From Auanema rhodensis (Eukaryota; Animalia; Nematoda), in contig OZ059899.1 in the NCBI GenBank assembly GCA_964057225.1, positions 4,030,001 to 4,094,000 on the forward strand: a stretch of 64,000 nucleotides of DNA, in the 5' to 3' direction. The translations under genes and the position numbers were made by a program. The notes under the pieces were generated by a model, which worked only from the letters and a program-made list of their open reading frames with translations, was not told the DNA's origin and did no database searches. This document shows, piece after piece, positions 1 to 11,173 of the stretch; position 1 is the first letter of the stretch; each line of letters starts with the position of its first letter.

Positions 1-3000
1 AATTTTTTCGTTGAATAACATTGTCCATCGTCTTTGCCTTGAAAAAAGGAATCTAAAAACATCTACTTTTTGCTAAATTATTCCGAAATTTCTCGAAAAA
101 ATTTTTGTCAAAATGTTTTTGGAAGCAATGTTGAGTGTACATGGAAACTCAACATACACTAATGCATCATTTTTCAAACGATCATAACTAATTTTTGTAT
201 TAAGCGTTTCTCAATGTAGTATAGTGCATTCGATGCGGATTTTTAAGCTGCGTCGATCTGTGTTATCAGATTTGCGCTAGCTTAAAAATGCACCGAGATA
301 TCAACTGATATAAGTTTACACTTATATCCTCGATTTTCACCCTGAAGAATTAATTTTTTCGTTGAATAGCATTGTCCATCGTCTTTGCCTTGAAAAAAGG
401 AATCTAAAAACATCTACTTTTTGCTAAATTATTTTAAAATTTTTCGAAAAAATTTTTGTCAAAATGTTTTTGGAAGCAATGTTGAGTGTACATGGAAACT
501 CAACATACACTAATGCATCATTTTTCAAACGATCATAACTAATTTTTGTATTAAGCGTTTCTCAATGTAGTATAGTGCATTCGATGCGGATTTTTAAGCT
601 GCGTCGATCTGTGTTATCAGATTTGCGCTAGCTTAAAAATGCACCGAGATATCAACTGATATAAGTTCACACTTATATCCTCGATTTTCACCCTGAAGAA
701 TTGATTTTTTCGTTGAATAACATTGTCCATCGTCTTTGCCTTGAAAAATGGAATCTAAAAACATCTACTTTTTGCTAAATTATTTTGAAATTTTTCGAAA
801 AAAGTTTTGTCAAAATGTTTTTGGAAGCAATGTTGAGTGTACATGGAAACTCAACATACACTAATGCATCATTTTTCAAACGATCATAACTAATTTTTGT
901 ATTAAGCGTTTCTCAATGTAGTATAGTGCATTCGATGCGGATTTTTAAGCTGCGTCGTTCTGTGTTATTAGATTTGCGCTAGCTTAAAAATGCAACGAGA
1001 TATCAACTGATATAAGTTCACACTTATATCCTCGATTTTCACCCTGAAGAATTAATTTTTTCGTTGAATAACATTGTCCATCGTCTTTGCCTTGAAAAAA
1101 GGAATCTAAAAACATCTACTTTTTGCTAAATTATTCCGAAATTTCTCGAAAAAATTTTTGTCAAAATGTTTTTGGAAGCAATGTTGAGTGTACATGGAAA
1201 CTCAACATACACTAATGCATCATTTTTCAAACGATCATAACTAATTTTTGTATTAAGCGTTTCTCAATGTAGTATAGTGCATTCGATGCGGATTTTTAAG
1301 CTGCGTCGATCTGTGTTATCAGATTTGCGCTAGCTTAAAAATGCACCGAGATATCAACTGATATAAGTTCACACTTATATCCTCGATTTTCACCCTGAAG
1401 AATTGATTTTTTCGTTGAATAACATTGTCCATCGTCTTTGCCTTGAAAAATGGAATCTAAAAACATCTACTTTTTGCTAAATTATTTTGAAATTTTTCGA
1501 AAAAATTTTTGTCAAAATGTTTTTGGAAGCAATGTTGAGTGTACATGGAAACTCAACATACACTAATGCATCATTTTTCAAACGATCATAACTAATTTTT
1601 GTATTAAGCATTTCTCAATGTAGTATAGTGCATTCGATGCGGATTTTTAAGCTGCGTCGATCTATGTTATCAGATTTGCGCTAGCTTAAAAATGCACCAA
1701 GATATCAACTGATATAAGTTCACACTTATATCCTCGATTTTCACCCTGAAGAATTAATTTTTTCGTTGAATAACATTGTCCATCGTCTTTGCCTTGAAAA
1801 AAGGAATCTAAAAACATCTACTTTTTGCTAAATTATTCCGAAATTTCTCGAAAAAATTTTTGTCAAAATGTTTTTGGAAGCAATGTTGAGTGTACATGGA
1901 AACTCAACATACACTAATGCATCATTTTTCAAACGATCATAACTAATTTTTGTATTAAGCGTTTCTCAATGTAGTATAGTGCATTCGATGCGGATTTTTA
2001 AGCTGCGTCGATCTGTGTTATCAGATTTGCGCTAGCTTAAAAATGCACCGAGATATCAACTGATATAAGTTCACACTTATATCCTCGATTTTCACCCTGA
2101 AGAATTGATTTTTTCGTTGAATAACATTGTCCATCGTCTTTGCCTTGAAAAATGGAATCTAAAAACATCTACTTTTTGCTAAATTATTTTGAAATTTTTC
2201 GAAAAAAGTTTTGTCAAAATGTTTTTGGAAGCAATGTTGAGTGTACATGGAAACTCAACATACACTAATGCATCATTTTTCAAACGATCATAACTAATTT
2301 TTGTATTAAGCGTTTCTCAATGTAGTATAGTGCATTCGATGCGGATTTTTAAGCTGCGTCGTTCTGTAATATCAGATTTGCGCTAGCTTAAAAATGCAAC
2401 GAGATATCAACTGATATAAGTTCACACTTATATCCTCGATTTTCACCCTGAAGAATTAATTTTTTCGTTGAATAACATTGTCCATCGTCTTTGCCTTGAA
2501 AAAAGGAATCTAAAAACATCTACTTTTTGCTAAATTATTTCGAAATTTCTCGAAAAAATTTTTGTCAAAATGTTTTTGGAAGCAATGTTGAGTGTACATG
2601 GAAACTCAACATACACTAATGCATCATTTTTCAAACGATCATAACTAATTTTTGTATTAAGCGTTTCTCAATGTAGTATAGTGCATTCGATGCGGATTTT
2701 TAAGCTGCGTCGATCTGTGTTATCAGATTTGCGCTAGCTTAAAAATGCACCGAGATATCAACTGATATAAGTTCACACTTATATCCTCGATTTTCACCCT
2801 GAAGAATTGATTTTTTCGTTGAATAACATTGTCCATCGTCTTTGCCTTGAAAAATGGAATCTAAAAACATCTACTTTTTGCTAAATTATTTTGAAATTTT
2901 TCGAAAAAAGTTTTGTCAAAATGTTTTTGGAAGCAATGTTGAGTGTACATGGAAACTCAACATACACTAATGCATCATTTTTCAAACGATCATAACTAAT

Positions 3001-5930
3001 TTTTGTATTAAGCGTTTCTCAATGTAGTATAGTGCATTCGATGCGGATTTTTAAGCTGCGTCGATCTGTGTTATCAGATTTGCGCTAGCTTAAAAATGCA
3101 CCGAGATATCAACTGATATAAGTTCACACTTATATCCTCGATTTTCACCCTGAAGAATTGATTTTTTCGTTGAATAACATTGTCCATCGTCTTTGCCTTG
3201 AAAAATGGAATCTAAAAACATCTACTTTTTGCTAAATTATTTTGAAATTTTTCGAAAAAAGTTTTGTCAAAATGTTTTTGGAAGCAATGTTGAGTGTACA
3301 TGGAAACTCAACATACACTAATGCATCATTTTTCAAACGATCATAACTAATTTTTGTATTAAGCGTTTCTCAATGTAGTATAGTGCATTCGATGCGGATT
3401 TTTAAGCTGCGTCGTTCTGTGTTATCAGATTTGCGCTAGCTTAAAAATGCAACGAGATATCAACTGATATAAGTTCACACTTATATCCTCGATTTTCACC
3501 CTGAAGAATTAATTTTTTCGTTGAATAACATTGTCCATCGTCTTTGCCTTGAAAAAAGGAATCTAAAAACATCTACTTTTTGCTAAATTATTTCGAAATT
3601 TCTCGAAAAAATTTTTGTCAAAATGTTTTTGGAAGCAATGTTGAGTGTACATGGAAACTCAACATACACTAATGCATCATTTTTCAAACGATCATAACTA
3701 ATTTTTGTATTAAGCGTTTCTCAATGTAGTATAGTGCATTCGATGCGGATTTTTAAGCTGCGTCGATCTGTGTTATCAGATTTGCGCTAGCTTAAAAATG
3801 CACCGAGATATCAACTGATATAAGTTCACACTTATATCCTCGATTTTCACCCTGAAGAATTGATTTTTTCGTTGAATAACATTGTCCATCGTCTTTGCCT
3901 TGAAAAATGGAATCTAAAAACATCTACTTTTTGCTAAATTATTTTGAAATTTTTCGAAAAAAGTTTTGTCAAAATGTTTTTGGAAGCAATGTTGAGTGTA
4001 CATGGAAACTCAACATACACTAATGCATCATTTTTCAAACGATCATAACTAATTTTTGTATTAAGCGTTTCTCAATGTAGTATAGTGCATTCGATGCGGA
4101 TTTTTAAGCTGCGTCGATCTGTGTTATCAGATTTGCGCTAGCTTAAAAATGCACCGAGATATCAACTGATATAAGTTCACACTTATATCCTCGATTTTCA
4201 CCCTGAAGCATTGATTTTTTCGTTGAATAACATTGTCCATCGTCTTTGCCTTGAAAAATGGAATCTAAAAACATCTACTTTTTGCTAAATTATTTTGAAA
4301 TTTTTCGAAAAAAGTTTTGTCAAAATGTTTTTGGAAGCAATGTTGAGTGTACATGGAAACTCAACATACACTAATGCATCATTTTTCAAACGATCATAAC
4401 TAATTTTTGTATTAAGCGTTTCTCAATGTAGTATAGTGCATTCGATGCGGATTTTTAAGCTGCGTCGATCTGTGTTATCAGATTTGCGCTAGCTTAAAAA
4501 TGCACCGAGATATCAACTGATATAAGTTCACACTTATATCCTCGATTTTCACCCTGAAGAATTGATTTTTTCGTTGAATAACATTGTCCATCGTCTTTGC
4601 CTTGAAAAATGGAATCTAAAAACATCTACTTTTTGCTAAATTATTTTGAAATTTTTCGAAAAAAGTTTTGTCAAAATGTTTTTGGAAGCAATGTTGAGTG
4701 TACATGGAAACTCAACATACACTAATGCATCATTTTTCAAACGATCATAACTAATTTTTGTATTAAGCGTTTCTCAATGTAGTATAGTGCATTCGATGCG
4801 GATTTTTAAGCTGCGTCGATCTGTGTTATCAGATTTGCGCTAGCTTAAAAATGCACCGAGATATCAACTGATATAAGTTCACACTTATATCCTCGATTTT
4901 CACCCTGAAGCATTGATTTTTTCGTTGAATAACATTGTCCATCGTCTTTGCCTTGAAAAATGGAATCTAAAAACATCTACTTTTTGCTAAATTATTTTGA
5001 AATTTTTCGAAAAAAGTTTTGTCAAAATGTTTTTGGAAGCAATGTTGAGTGTACATGGAAACTCAACATACACTAATGCATCATTTTTCAAACGATCATA
5101 ACTAATTTTTGTATTAAGCGTTTCTCAATGTAGTATAGTGCATTCGATGCGGATTTTTAAGCTGCGTCGATCTGTGTTATCAGATTTGCGCTAGCTTAAA
5201 AATGCACCGAGATATCAACTGATATAAGTTCACACTTATATCCTCGATTTTCACCCTGAAGAATTAATTTTTTCGTTGAATAACATTGTCCATCGTCTTT
5301 GCCTTGAAAAAAGGAATCTAAAAACATCTACTTTTTGCTAAATTATTTTGAAATTTTTCGAAAAAAGTTTTGTCAAAATGTTTTTGGAAGCAATGTTGAG
5401 TGTACATGGAAACTCAACATACACTAATGCATCATTTTTCAAACGATCATAACTAATTTTTGTATTAAGCGTTTCTCAATGTAGTATAGTGCATTCGATG
5501 CGGATTTTTAAGCTGCGTCGTTCTGTGTTATCAGATTTGCGCTAGCTTAAAAATGCACCGAGATATGAACTGATATAAGTTCACACTTATATCCTCGATT
5601 TTCACCCTGAAGAATTAATTTTTTCGTTGAATAACATTGTCCATCGTCTTTGCCTTGAAAAAAGGAATCTAAAAACATCTACTTTTTGCTAAATTATTTT
5701 GAAATTTTTCGAAAAAAGTTTTGTCAAAATGTTTTTGGAAGCAATGTTGAGTGTACATGGAAACTCAACATACACTAATGCATCATTTTTCAAACGATCA
5801 TAACTAATTTTTGTATTAAGCGTTTCTCAATGTAGTATAGTGCATTCGATGCGGATTTTTAAGCTGCGTCGTTCTGTGTTATCAGATTTGCGCTAGCTTA
5901 AAAATGCAACGAGATATCAACTGATATAAG
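1..5930. repeat. 351-bp tandem satellite array, left arm (16 full monomers plus the interrupted 17th)
   Basis: The motif [a/g]attttttcgttgaata recurs at 1, 352, 703, 1054 and onward with an exact 351-bp period. Monomers differ by only a few substitutions. The array runs off the left edge of the window. Confidence 0.99.
5927..5930. other. Target-site duplication, left copy (TAAG)
   Basis: The empty satellite site reads gatataagttcac. The left junction is gatataag|agtc and the right junction is gaca|taagttcac. Confidence 0.85.
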
Positions 5931-6410
5931 AGTCAAAAGACTGTATAATAAAAAAGGAAAAAAAATAAAAAAATAAAAGAATTTATTAAAAAATTAGAAA
6001 AATAAAAGACAGACTTAAACTGATTAAAATATATCACAATTATCTTATATCAACAATTTTAGGTAAACAATTGATCTTATCACTAATCTTAGATGTGCAT
6101 GCTTGATAATCTGATTACGGTAGTTGATCTTGGCAACATGCCCAAAGTTGTAACTTTGTTAGAACTTGTCTAAATGAAATAAGAATGATATATTCGTGCT
6201 TGTCGTTGCAAGACGAATTCAACTGTACTATATTCATGTAGTTAACTATATGTAGTTAAGTATGTGATTTTATATGATATAGGTTTTATCAATGTTTTAC
6301 ATACTTCTCAAGATAATATAATGTTTAACGTACTCAACAGAGTGTTTGTGGATAACTATACGTTATATACCACATGAAACATAGGTGGGTAACTATAGCC
6401 AACTGCGACA
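5931..6410 (-). repeat. 3' LTR (480 bp)
   Basis: Direct repeat of 10694-11173, preceded on the minus strand by the purine tract AGGACGGGGA. Confidence 0.96.
5982..5987 (-). terminator. Candidate polyadenylation signal AATAAA in the 3' LTR
   Basis: Minus-strand AATAAA about 50 nt from the LTR end, followed by a long T-rich tract. The 5' LTR copy is at 10745-10750. Confidence 0.55.
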
Positions 6411-6420
6411 TCCCCGTCCT
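6411..6420 (-). promoter_or_regulatory. Polypurine tract (plus-strand primer)
   Basis: Minus strand AGGACGGGGA (9 of 10 purines) abuts the TGT start of the 3' LTR. Confidence 0.85.
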
Positions 6421-6521
6421 ACAAAAAATTCTCGTCCTCGAGAAATAAATTCTCTTTATTAACGTAATAGACATATAAAACAAGACATAGCAACCTTGTA
6501 CAAGAAAAAAATTAACATCAA

Positions 6522-9500
6522 TCAATGTTTATGAAAGGGTGTGTGGCGGGATTTGAAAGAAACATTTTGTTTCACGTGGTGTAATTGATTATTTGCGCGC
6601 TTTGGAACATTTTGAGCGCTAGTGCGTTTTTTGCGATCCACCCTGTTAAACATAGTGGCCATACCAAGCCCTAAAAGGTTTTTCTTGAGCATAGTTGTAT
6701 AATTTTTCAAATCATCAACTCTTATACGGTCAGTTGATTTATTATAAGGTAATGGGCCACCCGAATGCCAAAAATGAGTAATTAAAGGTAAATCGTTTTT
6801 ACGACAACCAACATACTGAACGAAACAAGACTCATTAAGAGAATGTAACTGGAATTTCAAAAGCTCCGTTTCTTTTTCCCACACTTCCATTGAGTCAAAA
6901 AATTTATGATCGTCGTAGCGACATAAAGGACTCAGTAATACTATATGCGCTTGCAACACTACCCCCAAACGTGACAAAATTCTCAAAATTTCTTGAATTT
7001 CGGAAGTATTTGTAATCATTGGTAGTGTTACAAAAGCATATTTCAAATTTACTTTGTTCAGTAAATATCGTGGGATATCTTCTTTCATTGAAGAATATTC
7101 AACTGAACGACCATAAGGAAATTCAAATTCTGTTAACCCGCTATAGTTTTTAGGGTAGAAGAAAATATCTTCTTTAACTCTCTTTTCTTCCCGAGAAATT
7201 TTTCCTAACGATAAAAGAAAAGCTTTTGAGGCGTTGTCTTCTGACATTCCGAAAAGGGCGCATTCTGTGAATGTTAGATGATAATTCTCTAACAATGGAT
7301 AATCTATTTTAGCGTGTAAACAATTTTTCCGTTGAATACAAAATGCTTCAGCCATGCTTGTTGCTTGCGGCATGACTTGCATACGATTAATAACATTGAG
7401 TTTTTGATCAATCCATATTTTTGGATTCTCTAAAACTTCGATAAACTGGGCCAGACGATATGTATTTGAAATTTGTAGTCCTTTGAGTGGTATCGGACAT
7501 TTCTCTCCAAAAATGGAGCCATAAGTTGCTGTTTTCCAACTGCACTGTTCTTCATATCCGTCGTTTCTTTGTATTTTTCCCGAACATTTATACAAAGGGT
7601 GGCAGGCTTGATCAGGAGTTATGATCAGGTTTCTGAAACAAATACGATTACACTTTTTTTTTCTGTTACGTTTTGTTTCAGCAGTTACTACTCCCAAATT
7701 ATCAGGGATTTTATGTAGTAGATCTGTTTGAACTTTTAGAGGTTCATTATTTTCCTCTAGTTCATTAATAAATGCAGAAGTGTTATATTTTGATATCACT
7801 CTGTACGGTCCTCGAAAATCGAAAGCTTGTTTCTTATTCGGATCACCTCTTTTTTCAAAAGGTGTTTTAATGAAAACTCGATCACTTATTTTTGGTGAAT
7901 CGGATTTTTTCTCACTCTTTTTATCAGAGTATGATTTAAACCTTTTTTTGGTTTTATCATTCCTATTTTTATTTTCTATTGAAACAATAGGAAGAGCCAT
8001 AGCACTATTGCTAGGTTCATTCAATCTCTTGTTTAGAAGATTTTTGAAAACCTTCTTAAATCCGTTCCTGACTCTAATAGGAACAGGTCGAACTTTCAAT
8101 CTGATTGGTTTTGTGACCATATCAGTATGTGTTAGGTCGGCTTCATTTAGAGCAACCTGCACATTATTTTTAACTAACCCCAAATTGGGAGCTTTAAACT
8201 TTTGACTCTCAAAAGTTCGTTTATCCAATCGGTAAGAGTCCTGATGCTGTATTTCGCATTCGTGTTCAGGTTTTTCTCTCAAACTGATCTTTTTTATCGC
8301 TGGATTTGGCTCTATTGTTTCAAAACCAAATCTCCAGTGACCTATAAATTCTCCTGCCTTAATCATCACAGGGTTGTCCGTGTTATTATGTAAATTCACG
8401 GTTGATATATTATCTTTGATGGGATATATTCCCGAAACTGCAACAGCAGTTAGAGCGTTAAAAAACATTTCTCTTTTTATTGAAATCGCGTCACAAGAAA
8501 CTAACACTTGATTTTGCGAAAAAGGAGGTAAATACACTCTTTTTAGAGTCATTGCTTTAGTTTTATTGAACTTTAAGCATATGTCTAAAGAATTCAAACA
8601 ATTTGTACCCAATATCATTTGATTTTCTTTGTTTTTGCTGACTAAAAAGTCAACAATTGCCTCTTTGTGGTTTTCATCACACAAAACAGACATTCGCACG
8701 GCGCCAACAAAATGCATTTGATCACCTGATGCGTTAACTATGAACTTTTTATTAGTCCATGGTAATTCCACTATTCTTTCATCTGCGTTGATTTTTTTTT
8801 GTTTCAACGAATCGATTACTCGAACTAGCAATGATGAACTGATGACCGAAATTTGCGATCCAGTATCTAGTAATGCATCATGCATATGGACTTGACATAA
8901 AGTCATTCTCCCTAATGCTGGTTTACCAAACAATGGGGGGTTTCTCAAATCACTTGAAGTGATTTGGATTGCTCGATTCCAACTCTCAGCTTTTCTGTTA
9001 ATGCTGGGTGGTTCTCGAGGAGTATTAAGTCTACTTTCATTCTCTATTCTCTCATTTTGTCTTTTAAAACATACGTTTGCAGTATGTCCTTTTTTATTAC
9101 AGTTCACACAAATAATTTCATTATTATTAGTGTTTCTCACTCTTCTCTCATCGGAGATATGTGGATATTGTTTCCGGCTCAAGTTTTGTTTCTGCTCGGA
9201 TTCATTGGATTGATTGATTGAACGAGTTAACTTATTTCGTTCACATCTGAGGGCGATTTGTTTTACTTTTTCGTAAATTTCTTCGTCCTCCTCATCCTCT
9301 ATTTTTTCAAGGATGGAAACTCCACAAGAACAATTACAAAGTTCTTGGTACAGTTTATTTGCTCTTTCGAACGATAATAAACCAGGAATTAAATCTGGAT
9401 TAGCCAGTTGAGTCAGTTTTTCTAACTCATCGCAGTAATTTACTAACGACTGGGATCTATTCCATTTCAAACTTTTCAAGTTTTCAGTAGCCTGCATTCT

Positions 9501-10280
9501 TCCCTGTCTTTGTGAAACGGTTGACTCTCTACGTAAACTGTTCACTATGACATCTAAGGAACTTTGCTTTATGGCTTCAGGTAACTCTCTATAGCGATTT
9601 CTGATCTCGCCTTGGAGTTTATTGATGAATAAAAGTTTTTTTTCACGTTGAGAAAAAACATCATCTGGGTATTTATAGTTAAATCGTTCTGTGAAATCAA
9701 CGAATTCACTATACGATCCACCCTTATAAGCCTCAACCTCAGGTAGTAACTGGGTTTTCATGAGTTTTGCAATATCGTAAAAGGACTTACCCTGATAACT
9801 GCACTCCTGGCTGTAAAGTTTGTTCTTTCTTGCTGAGCTCTTCAGCTGTAAAGAAGAAAAGGATTTATTCAGTTTAGAATTTACTAACGAACCTTTTTCA
9901 CTATCTGTAATTGACAGATTCATAAATTTTTCATCGGTTACTTGTTCAACCTGTAAAAAATCATGTTTAATATTATGATTAATCAAATTTTCAATTTTAA
10001 TCAAAACATTATCATTGTTAGAATCACAGATGTTGTGGATCTGATTTAACAAATCAATCTCTTTTTGAAAATTTTTTATTTCAGAACTAGAGATTTTTAA
10101 ATTCTTAGCTATTTTAGCTAGATTTTTCTCGGCTTCGACTCTTGGTCTACAACCGGTTTTAGTATGATTTAAAATCAAACTTTGAGCAAAAGATAAAATG
10201 TTATCTATATTACTCTCAAATTTATCAAAATTAAAAGGTAGTCTTACCTCGTTCATTTCGATATCCAGTTCCTCACTCAT
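6522..10280 (-). CDS. Gag-protease polyprotein with internally deleted Pol (RT N-terminal remnant fused to the integrase C-terminal GPY/F region) and a C-terminal extension, 1252 aa
   Basis: Capsid-like segment LPEVEAYKGGSYSEFVDFTERFNYKY. Zinc knuckle CVNCNKKGHTANVC (9069-9110). Aspartic protease LLDTGSQISVI (DTG at 8859-8867) plus ILGTNCL. RT-start remnant PIRLKVRPVP...EPSNSAMALPIV (about 7968-8114). IN C-terminal ISDRVF...FRGPYRV (GPY at 7803-7811). No YxDD, RNase H, HHCC or DDE region is visible. Confidence 0.92.
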   Translation of the reverse strand: MSEELDIEMNEVRLPFNFDKFESNIDNILSFAQSLILNHTKTGCRPRVEAEKNLAKIAKNLKISSSEIKNFQKEIDLLNQIHNICDSNNDNVLIKIENLINHNIKHDFLQVEQVTDEKFMNLSITDSEKGSLVNSKLNKSFSSLQLKSSARKNKLYSQECSYQGKSFYDIAKLMKTQLLPEVEAYKGGSYSEFVDFTERFNYKYPDDVFSQREKKLLFINKLQGEIRNRYRELPEAIKQSSLDVIVNSLRRESTVSQRQGRMQATENLKSLKWNRSQSLVNYCDELEKLTQLANPDLIPGLLSFERANKLYQELCNCSCGVSILEKIEDEEDEEIYEKVKQIALRCERNKLTRSINQSNESEQKQNLSRKQYPHISDERRVRNTNNNEIICVNCNKKGHTANVCFKRQNERIENESRLNTPREPPSINRKAESWNRAIQITSSDLRNPPLFGKPALGRMTLCQVHMHDALLDTGSQISVISSSLLVRVIDSLKQKKINADERIVELPWTNKKFIVNASGDQMHFVGAVRMSVLCDENHKEAIVDFLVSKNKENQMILGTNCLNSLDICLKFNKTKAMTLKRVYLPPFSQNQVLVSCDAISIKREMFFNALTAVAVSGIYPIKDNISTVNLHNNTDNPVMIKAGEFIGHWRFGFETIEPNPAIKKISLREKPEHECEIQHQDSYRLDKRTFESQKFKAPNLGLVKNNVQVALNEADLTHTDMVTKPIRLKVRPVPIRVRNGFKKVFKNLLNKRLNEPSNSAMALPIVSIENKNRNDKTKKRFKSYSDKKSEKKSDSPKISDRVFIKTPFEKRGDPNKKQAFDFRGPYRVISKYNTSAFINELEENNEPLKVQTDLLHKIPDNLGVVTAETKRNRKKKCNRICFRNLIITPDQACHPLYKCSGKIQRNDGYEEQCSWKTATYGSIFGEKCPIPLKGLQISNTYRLAQFIEVLENPKIWIDQKLNVINRMQVMPQATSMAEAFCIQRKNCLHAKIDYPLLENYHLTFTECALFGMSEDNASKAFLLSLGKISREEKRVKEDIFFYPKNYSGLTEFEFPYGRSVEYSSMKEDIPRYLLNKVNLKYAFVTLPMITNTSEIQEILRILSRLGVVLQAHIVLLSPLCRYDDHKFFDSMEVWEKETELLKFQLHSLNESCFVQYVGCRKNDLPLITHFWHSGGPLPYNKSTDRIRVDDLKNYTTMLKKNLLGLGMATMFNRVDRKKRTSAQNVPKRANNQLHHVKQNVSFKSRHTPFHKH

Positions 10281-10311
10281 GATGGAGATATAGGCAATGA
10301 CTGTTTGTCAA

Positions 10312-10323
10312 CTGGAAATAAAA
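10312..10323 (-). promoter_or_regulatory. Candidate 3' splice or trans-splice acceptor upstream of the gag ATG
   Basis: Minus strand TTTTATTTCCAG ends 31 nt before the ATG at 10280 and resembles the nematode TTTTCAG/TTTCCAG acceptor consensus. Confidence 0.4.
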
Positions 10324-10649
10324 TTATTAGTTTTCTATACGAAAAAATAATTTAAAATATTGTCAAAAAAATTCTATACGAACAATGACAAAAAATTTTG
10401 ATTTCTTCTCGAAATCAAAAGTGAAAGTTTCAACTCTCTCAAGTTTCTCCGAAAAAAAAATTCTGTTAACACCTAATCAGTGTTTAGCAAAATTTTTTTT
10501 TTTCCTCTTTTTTTTTTTTTCACAAAAAATTTTATGAAAAAAAAAAAATTCAGAAAAAATCGGAAAAACCCTATACGGGAGAGTTGTGACTAAATCACCA
10601 AGAGCTATACGCTCAAAAATAGGTTAAGAAACTATACGTTTCCCTATTT
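10321..10649 (-). promoter_or_regulatory. 5' leader cluster of five stem-loops sharing a C-GUAUA-G loop (candidate packaging or protein-binding signal)
   Basis: Plus-strand CTATACG at 10335, 10374, 10571, 10605 and 10632, each flanked by a different self-complementary stem. Confidence 0.7.
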
Positions 10650-10678
10650 AACAAAAAAACAATCAATCGAGCAGAGAA

Positions 10679-10693
10679 CCGGTTCGGCCCCCA
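10679..10693 (-). promoter_or_regulatory. Primer-binding site, tRNA-Pro
   Basis: Minus strand TGGGGGCCGAACCGG directly after the 5' LTR. It is complementary to a tRNA 3' end ...CCGGTTCGGCCC-CCA, which I recall as the Caenorhabditis-type tRNA-Pro 3' end. Confidence 0.88.
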
Positions 10694-11173
10694 AGTCAAA
10701 AGACTGTATAATAAAAAAGGAAAAAAAATAAAAAAATAAAAGAATTTATTAAAAAATTAGAAAAATAAAAGACAGACTTAAACTGATTAAAATATATCAC
10801 AATTATCTTATATCAACAATTTTAGGTAAACAATTGATCTTATCACTAATCTTAGATGTGCATGCTTGATAATCTGATTACGGTAGTTGATCTTGGCAAC
10901 ATGCCCAAAGTTGTAACTTTGTTAGAACTTGTCTAAATGAAATAAGAATGATATATTCGTGCTTGTCGTTGCAAGACGAATTCAACTGTACTATATTCAT
11001 GTAGTTAACTATATGTAGTTAAGTATGTGATTTTATATGATATAGGTTTTATCAATGTTTTACATACTTCTCAAGATAATATAATGTTTAACGTACTCAA
11101 CAGAGTGTTTGTGGATAACTATACGTTATATACCACATGAAACATAGGTGGGTAACTATAGCCAACTGCGACA
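10694..11173 (-). repeat. 5' LTR (480 bp)
   Basis: Direct repeat of 5931-6410 with no mismatch found by eye. The minus strand reads TGTCGCAG...TTTTGACT and is followed directly by the PBS. Confidence 0.96.

Follow-up and report, generated by a model that had tools for sequence, protein, structure and literature searches.

Five hairpins that carry the same loop and closing pair, C-GUAUA-G, on different stems lie in the leader of an LTR retroelement of the nematode Auanema rhodensis. Are they a signal at the RNA level, and if so what would read it? The window (the whole stretch of 64,000 nt that was analysed, positions 4,030,001 to 4,094,000 of contig OZ059899.1) is filled by a 351-bp satellite, with 167 copies that are 97–100% alike and the LTR element as the single interruption. 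The satellite spans window positions 1-5930 and 11174-64000, where read depth is 1e6-3e7 as compared to tens to thousands over the element, which shows that the 351-bp array is very large. The element lies on the minus strand and is flanked by a 4-nt target duplication, TAAG, within the satellite. Its two 480-nt LTRs are identical, and the insertion is therefore recent. It is laid out as follows:

10694..11173, minus strand: 5′ LTR of 480 nt, with the same sequence as the 3′ LTR (direct repeat comparison)
10679..10693, minus strand: primer binding site (PBS) TGGGGGCCGAACCGG, whose leading 14 nt equal the Cer1 tRNA-Pro(TGG) PBS (sequence match)
6522..10280, minus strand: single ORF, from Gag to a Cys-rich C-terminal domain (ORF translation, protein alignment)
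6411..6420, minus strand: polypurine tract (PPT) (sequence)
5931..6410, minus strand: 3′ LTR, in which the LTR hairpin described below recurs (6347-6374) (direct repeat comparison)

The ORF encodes, in order, Gag (a capsid-like region and one CCHC knuckle), protease, an N-terminal remnant of RT, the C-terminal (GPY) region of integrase and the Cys-rich domain, and the RT remnant is fused in frame to the integrase region. ORF residues 151-781 align with residues 224-910 of one full polyprotein and residues 769-873 with 1627-1729 of the same polyprotein, indicating that an RT/RNase H/integrase core of ~715 residues was deleted in frame. In each of three DNA runs contigs bridge the gap in pol, and among the rows listed none shows a loose end at this place. 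No RT-bearing family copy at 80% identity or above was seen among the DNA-run contigs, which cannot prove absence. Among 7,993 scored candidates, the protein search returned two matches, both strongylid nematode gypsy proteins (E 5e-34), and it is strongylid gypsy proteins that the Gag-protease part and the pol remnants resemble. Four strongylid database proteins (P0004, P0006, P0007, P0008) likewise lack RT between Gag-protease and the C-terminal domain; they may be comparable elements without pol or artefacts of the gene models.

In the available text of PMC10309623 (also PMC3315495), the family mark of Cer1 is a tRNA-Pro PBS, TGGGGGCCGAACCG, that adjoins the 5′ LTR. The Auanema element has a tRNA-Pro PBS, TGGGGGCCG, directly beside its 5′ LTR (10679-10693) and direct terminal repeats of more than 100 bp (the 480-nt LTRs), with the target duplication and PPT. 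As far as the available text of PMC3315495 and PMC10309623 goes, the element shares with the Cer1 family (Ty3/gypsy, C. elegans) the PBS, one long ORF and an acceptor-like site ahead of the ATG, and with Cer1 a post-integrase domain that is led by TTTCAG and is of similar size (~388 aa here; Cer1 residues 1871-2272). Unlike Cer1 it has no RT, RNase H and integrase core in frame, and its C-terminal domain is too divergent to be identified as CERV, the post-integrase protein of Cer1. With this core absent and the proteins compared being those of strongylid gypsy elements, we file the element as a Cer1-like non-autonomous derivative.

The five hairpins, proposed in an earlier note on this DNA, exist at the coordinates given there, between the PBS and the ATG. 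With the ORF running on the minus strand, the sense-strand loop reads C-GUAUA-G:

10617..10649, minus strand: HP1, C-GUAUA-G, 5 + 7 pairs (pairing)
10602..10614, minus strand: HP2, C-GUAUA-G, 4 pairs (pairing)
10569..10579, minus strand: HP3, C-GUAUA-G, 3 pairs, predicted to lose out in context (folding)
10360..10391, minus strand: HP4, C-GUAUA-G, 4 (one G-U) + 6 pairs, with a rebuilt stem in a sister subfamily (pairing)
10321..10353, minus strand: HP5, C-GUAUA-G, 5 + 8 pairs, ending 3 nt from a putative splice acceptor (pairing)

Counting the closing C-G, the contiguous Watson-Crick pairs number 5 in HP1, 4 in HP2, 3 in HP3, 3 (plus one G-U) in HP4 and 5 in HP5. The window has 8 copies of the heptamer CTATACG, every one within the element and in one orientation, and shuffled windows held a mean of 2.0, with none of 100 reaching 8. 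In dinucleotide shuffles of the 398-nt leader, any 5-nt loop and closing pair recurred five times on stems of at least 3 pairs in 0 of 20,000 cases and four times in 2 of 20,000. With stems ignored, some 7-mer occurred at least 5 times in 55 of 20,000 shuffles, so most of the signal comes from the stems. Given five heptamers, flanks that pair equally well have a frequency of ~6.5e-6. Of the 27 chance loci from prokaryote genomes, 1 had a stem of at least 3 pairs. The one heptamer within the ORF (9709-9715) has the closing pair only, and was rightly called stemless in the earlier note.

That note also read the array as internal covariation and not simple duplication, and the arms of the hairpins bear this out. 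Native arms of all six hairpins (6/6, including one in the LTR) give 2-4 pairs beyond the closing pair; swapped arms give none in 26 of 30 combinations and 2 pairs in the other 4. In an alignment of the six hairpins and the ORF control, both sides change in each of the four pairs below the closing pair, and the covariation score is 0.667 vs 0.242 (0/500 shuffles), with the slid control being lenient because the structure was derived from the same sequences as the alignment. The claim that the stems share nothing beyond the C-G stands in part: there are five different stems, of which HP4 and HP5 share UUC/GAA, and HP1 shares AAC/GUU with the LTR hairpin. G-U pairs favour the sense strand (HP4, −7.2 vs −3.4 kcal/mol on the other strand), and the entire leader region folds with a z of −8.4. 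The weak member is HP3, which in context has a pair probability of 0.05, and a fold constrained to contain all five hairpins is 5.2 kcal/mol less favourable. When the whole LTR is included, HP1 and HP2 fall to 0.53 and 0.42, and HP4 and HP5 remain at 0.98-0.99. A predicted long-range helix between window positions 10430-10445 and 10567-10585 competes with HP3 and could be a conformational switch. The array is a real and statistically strong RNA-structure feature of a young non-autonomous Cer1-like element, and the hairpins presumably form in vivo.

The leader and LTR contain further hairpins, two of which (in the LTR and at 10396..10420) belong to the same class of loops and had gone unmentioned in the earlier note:

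11110..11137, minus strand: sixth C-GUAUA-G hairpin, in the LTR, with a 5-pair upper stem at 11115-11129 (pairing)
10501..10559, minus strand: long U/A-rich hairpin with 3 G-U pairs in the sense RNA (−18.3 kcal/mol, as compared to −12.2 for the opposite strand)
10423..10438, minus strand: hairpin without the motif
10396..10420, minus strand: C-GAGAA-G hairpin of 10 Watson-Crick pairs, GNRNA loop class

Two of the eight CTATACG heptamers are in the LTRs (11119-11125 and 6356-6362), each on a 5-pair stem, and a GUAUA hairpin of this kind arose in 5 of 20,000 LTR shuffles. The C-GAGAA-G hairpin was matched in 0 of 20,000 shuffles, and there is no C-GNRNA-G hairpin with at least 3 pairs within the ORF. 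Near the position of the motif-less hairpin, one diverged contig contains another inverted repeat, of different sequence and paired throughout (loose end at 10420). Directly before the PPT (window 6444-6460) is an A-GAGAA-U hairpin with 6 Watson-Crick pairs and a GNRNA loop. The LTR also contains three TATAGTTA sub-repeats (window 11006-11160), possibly promoter elements, one of which is overlapped by the LTR hairpin.

Natural variants of the family were sought in contigs of six DNA runs and one RNA run (7 of the 12 listed), the RNA run contributing none, and differences are reported from the rows listed in the variant tables. A sister subfamily (runs X3, X7, X6 and partly X8) has ~10 differences within 10310-10420 and none in the loops of HP4 and HP5. 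By hand reading, its HP4 upper stem goes from 3 Watson-Crick pairs and one G-U to 5 Watson-Crick pairs, and its HP5 lower stem is changed on both arms yet forms 6 A-U pairs. The 14 unchanged loop positions are not significant alone at the divergence of this subfamily (~0.27 as estimated by hand). Since stems made of A and U are readily formed anew, the subfamily gives modest support. Gag contigs that are ~85% identical occur in X6, X8 and X9 and are physically unlinked to the sister-subfamily leader.

Other variants lack some of the copies. A 220-nt deletion (window 10459-10678) that starts just after the PBS removes HP1-3 and keeps the GAGAA hairpin, HP4 and HP5; it is present in 4 of 6 DNA runs (X1, X6, X7, X8). 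Two of four runs contain an LTR variant whose closing pair is broken, and in a single X8 contig one pair of the GAGAA stem is altered. These three variants speak against a strict need for all hairpin copies. A further class of copies skips 6463-7654, which is the whole C-terminal domain plus its putative acceptor, and has 33 other letters instead. The skip was found in all 3 DNA runs with contigs there, at joint depths of 98, 15.5 and 16.6 vs ~51, 6-12 and 12.5 inside the C-terminal domain, depth not being equal to copy number. The family has forms both with and without the domain at the CERV position. A single X6 contig skips 3,541 nt (window 6440-9980), leaving little beyond the 5′ end of gag.

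The earlier note knew of no description of the motif; for the loop there is one. CGUAUAG is the solved pentaloop of the Csy4 CRISPR hairpin (PDB 2XLK), where it is bound to the endoribonuclease and, in the available text of PMC9830547, defines the CGYAYAG family within GNRNA. In that fold, taken from the protein-bound CRISPR hairpin, the G of the loop is paired to its last A, with the fourth base extruded (PMC9830547, available text). Six distinct hairpins of the element have the C-G-Y-A-Y-A-G arrangement on a closing stem. They share the identical loop and closing pair with the Csy4/Cas6f hairpin (PDB 2XLK; CGYAYAG in the available text of PMC9830547), which differs in having one fixed stem, CUGCC/GGCAG, that is cleaved; the element has varying stems and no Cas6 domain in its ORF. 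The possibility that the hairpins are a Csy4 (Cas6f) substrate or CRISPR repeat was rejected, as the stems differ, Rfam gives no CRISPR match and the ORF has no Cas domain, and the likeness is best read as convergence on one fold. The lambda boxB hairpin has a GNRNA pentaloop, as in the element. We found no report of a CGUAUAG or GUAUA pentaloop in an LTR retroelement in a literature search that covered mainly open-access journals, with papers on CGUAUAG judged by the titles listed. The array is a known fold in a new setting, the loop being already known and its use in a retroelement not previously found.

Related sequences were also sought beyond the element. A metagenome scan with the Gag-protease alignment gave 4 loci among 603 candidate stretches, of which L001-L003 look copia-type; PBS and heptamer are both absent from all 4. 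The copia-type coding sequence of L001 contains four GTATA (572-696), which are stemless and were set aside as unrelated. In viral contigs, the PBS and heptamer together gave 0 loci and the protein query 0 of 4; the PBS alone gave 120 matches, one of them GC-rich with a downstream heptamer. A triple heptamer was found at 119 viral loci, 7 of which had at least 2 short stems; these lie in near-identical tandem-like repeats and were rejected. The prokaryote genomes gave 27 loci, all attributed to chance, and tblastn of the collected proteins against the loci from L005 onward gave no match. Rfam gave 2 weak matches (E 2.7 and 4.9), both outside the leader.

Besides Gag, the ORF offers its C-terminal domain as a candidate reader. 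According to the available text of PMC10309623, CERV has a Cys-loop M domain and a Rossmann-like G domain after integrase and is made from a spliced mRNA whose last cerv exon (exon 5) starts at TTTCAG. CERV is needed for export of Cer1 genomic RNA and gathers on that RNA in the nucleus, for which an Arg and three Cys are needed; it is predicted to form rings of 5-8 subunits (5 or more) and has no recognised arginine-rich RNA-binding motif (PMC10309623, available text). In Cer1, too, the ATG is preceded by an acceptor, an SL1 site at which the 8-kb RNA is not trans-spliced (PMC3315495 and PMC10309623, available text). Matching sites can be placed on the Auanema element:

10312..10317, minus strand: TTCCAG, putative (trans-)splice acceptor, downstream of the hairpins and upstream of the ATG (pattern)
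7633..7638, minus strand: TTTCAG, putative acceptor opening the C-terminal domain, compare cerv exon 5 (pattern)
6522..7632, minus strand: C-terminal domain at the position of CERV M/G, candidate CERV-like by position, absent in many family copies

The element has only three TT(T/C)CAG on its sense strand: ahead of the ATG, at the start of the C-terminal domain and inside that domain. All five leader hairpins are 5′ of the sole one that precedes the ATG, with HP5 3 nt away. Neither of the canonical donors reaches the last acceptor in frame without an additional exon. Judged by pattern, TTCCAG and TTTCAG may be used as splice acceptors.

The C-terminal domain fits CERV in position, size, acceptor and cysteines, and the sequence and structure tests are weak or blank. 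Searches for homology of the domain to CERV gave 0 matches among 1.84 billion representatives and 0 among 1,681 candidates, and hhalign gave a probability of 0.7%. Residues 880-1010 align with six strongylid C-terminal domains at z = 3.6 (2 of 300 shuffles equally good), with 12 invariant residues within 908-998, and the remainder has no signal. Structure models of the domain are of low confidence (pLDDT 37), and an Atlas search with a homologue of the ORF protein gave matches of 0.82 at most. One short PDB sequence match of the domain (E 0.008) was disregarded. The domain may be a CERV homologue, and the link between the two is the weak one in the explanation that we rank first.

The earlier note had proposed an RNA-level multivalent signal in the PBS-gag interval of a pol-less LTR element, and the stem covariation, the sense-strand G-U bias and the sister subfamily all support it. 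That the leader hairpins are a multivalent tag of some kind on the genomic RNA is likely. As to the reader, Csy4 presumably binds with an arginine-rich helix, and arginine-rich motifs reportedly read GNRNA loops (Legault, 1998). Zinc knuckles prefer exposed guanines, and the CCHC knuckle that the earlier note had reading the loop G is a poor fit, since this G pairs with the last A in the solved fold; a protein could open the loop despite the paired G. This bears on the possibility, which we hold only tentatively, that the array is a packaging signal (psi), with Gag binding several hairpins cooperatively and selecting full-length RNA, pol-less copies included; in the earlier note this was possibly how the element competes for helper particles. 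The interval between PBS and gag is the textbook position of a packaging signal, and the array sits in it; the array would be confined to unspliced RNA if the predicted acceptor is used, and the LTR copy would also be on spliced RNA. Nucleocapsid knuckles read psi elements, and Gag is intact with its one CCHC knuckle and is retained in copies without the C-terminal domain; the paired and stacked G of the solved fold is unlike the exposed G that knuckles bind. In MLV psi, tandem GACG hairpins are linked to packaging. MLV psi and coronavirus SL5 are like the element in having several one-loop hairpins in the 5′ leader of a genomic RNA and unlike it in their loop; here the copies number five or six, their stems are unrelated, and one lies in the LTR as well. 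The repeated same-loop hairpins of SL5 are linked to packaging in the available text of PMC7217285, and Cer1 Gag joins the genomic RNA directly after export. Improbable in our view is a host germline RNA-binding protein that reads the loops, be it to export, localise or translate the RNA or to protect it from silencing. In some retroviruses export depends on an RNA structure to which host NXF1 binds, and copies without the C-terminal domain occur, but no host candidate was found and Rfam gives no leader match.

Two readings do without an RNA-binding protein. The loops could be docking modules of the GNRA type, their RNA-RNA contacts compacting or dimerising the genome with no specific protein reader. 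Their fold is GNRA-like, and loops of the same class occur in the GAGAA hairpin of the leader and in another before the PPT; no receptor motif was identified, however, and all five loop bases, the extruded U included, are identical on six stems, which would be more than docking needs. We consider docking no less improbable than a host reader. Kissing through the UAUA palindrome was rejected, as it would make four A-U pairs only. Finally, the heptamers could be bound as DNA or be relics of duplication within the element, with the hairpins incidental. The LTR copy lies inside one of the three TATAGTTA sub-repeats, all eight heptamers have the same orientation, and the deletion and LTR variants without some copies exist. 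However, pairing is largely confined to a copy's own flanks and mostly fails between copies, the covariation score and the strand bias of the G-U pairs argue for RNA, and stems are rare at chance loci. This reading is disfavoured and, of those weighed here, the one we consider very unlikely.

We rank a CERV-type response element first and Gag packaging second because the hairpins adjoin the putative acceptor and because of the biology of CERV; the two are not mutually exclusive. By analogy with Cer1, the tag may be read by a CERV-like (Rev-like) nuclear protein of the element, a serious possibility that falls somewhat short of probable. Such an export and splice-protection factor is at least as good a candidate reader as Gag, and was absent from the earlier note. 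Under this explanation the five same-loop hairpins would be a multi-copy tag on the unspliced genomic RNA, which they would mark exclusively since all five lie 5′ of the putative acceptor, if it is used. Trans-splicing at TTCCAG would remove the PBS, and full-length RNA would therefore need protection. The CERV-like protein would bind the loops, shield the neighbouring putative acceptor and license export of the genomic RNA, and copies without the C-terminal domain would use such a factor in trans. That five or six loops match a ring of five or more subunits is suggestive only. Perhaps the array is the missing response element of a nematode Rev analogue, made of Csy4/boxB-type GUAUA pentaloops. 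Each loop would dock on one subunit of a CERV-like ring of 5-8 subunits, which would block trans-splicing and export the genomic RNA, and a pol-less family would keep the array so that copies with and without the C-terminal domain could share the factor in trans; in this full form the proposal is speculative and more doubtful than either of the two leading readings. HIV Rev/RRE and its kin, in which a structured element on unspliced RNA is bound by a reader from a spliced mRNA, would be the parallel. There is no sequence relation to Rev/RRE or to lambda N/boxB, and in place of one large fold the element has small loops, all identical, arrayed along its 5′ leader.

In the available main text of PMC10309623, stem-loop, cis-acting and RRE are not mentioned, and the available parts of PMC3315495 and PMC10309623 describe no RNA structure in the Cer1 leader. 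The array may bear on how Cer1-type elements separate genomic from spliced RNA, a step for which the available text of PMC10309623 names no RNA element. If Gag is the reader, the array would give a nematode LTR element a defined packaging signal, and our searches found no such signal in print. Whichever reader holds, a retroelement appears to have reached independently the pentaloop that Csy4 reads, and a 7-nt loop on swappable stems beside an acceptor makes a small, mutable target.
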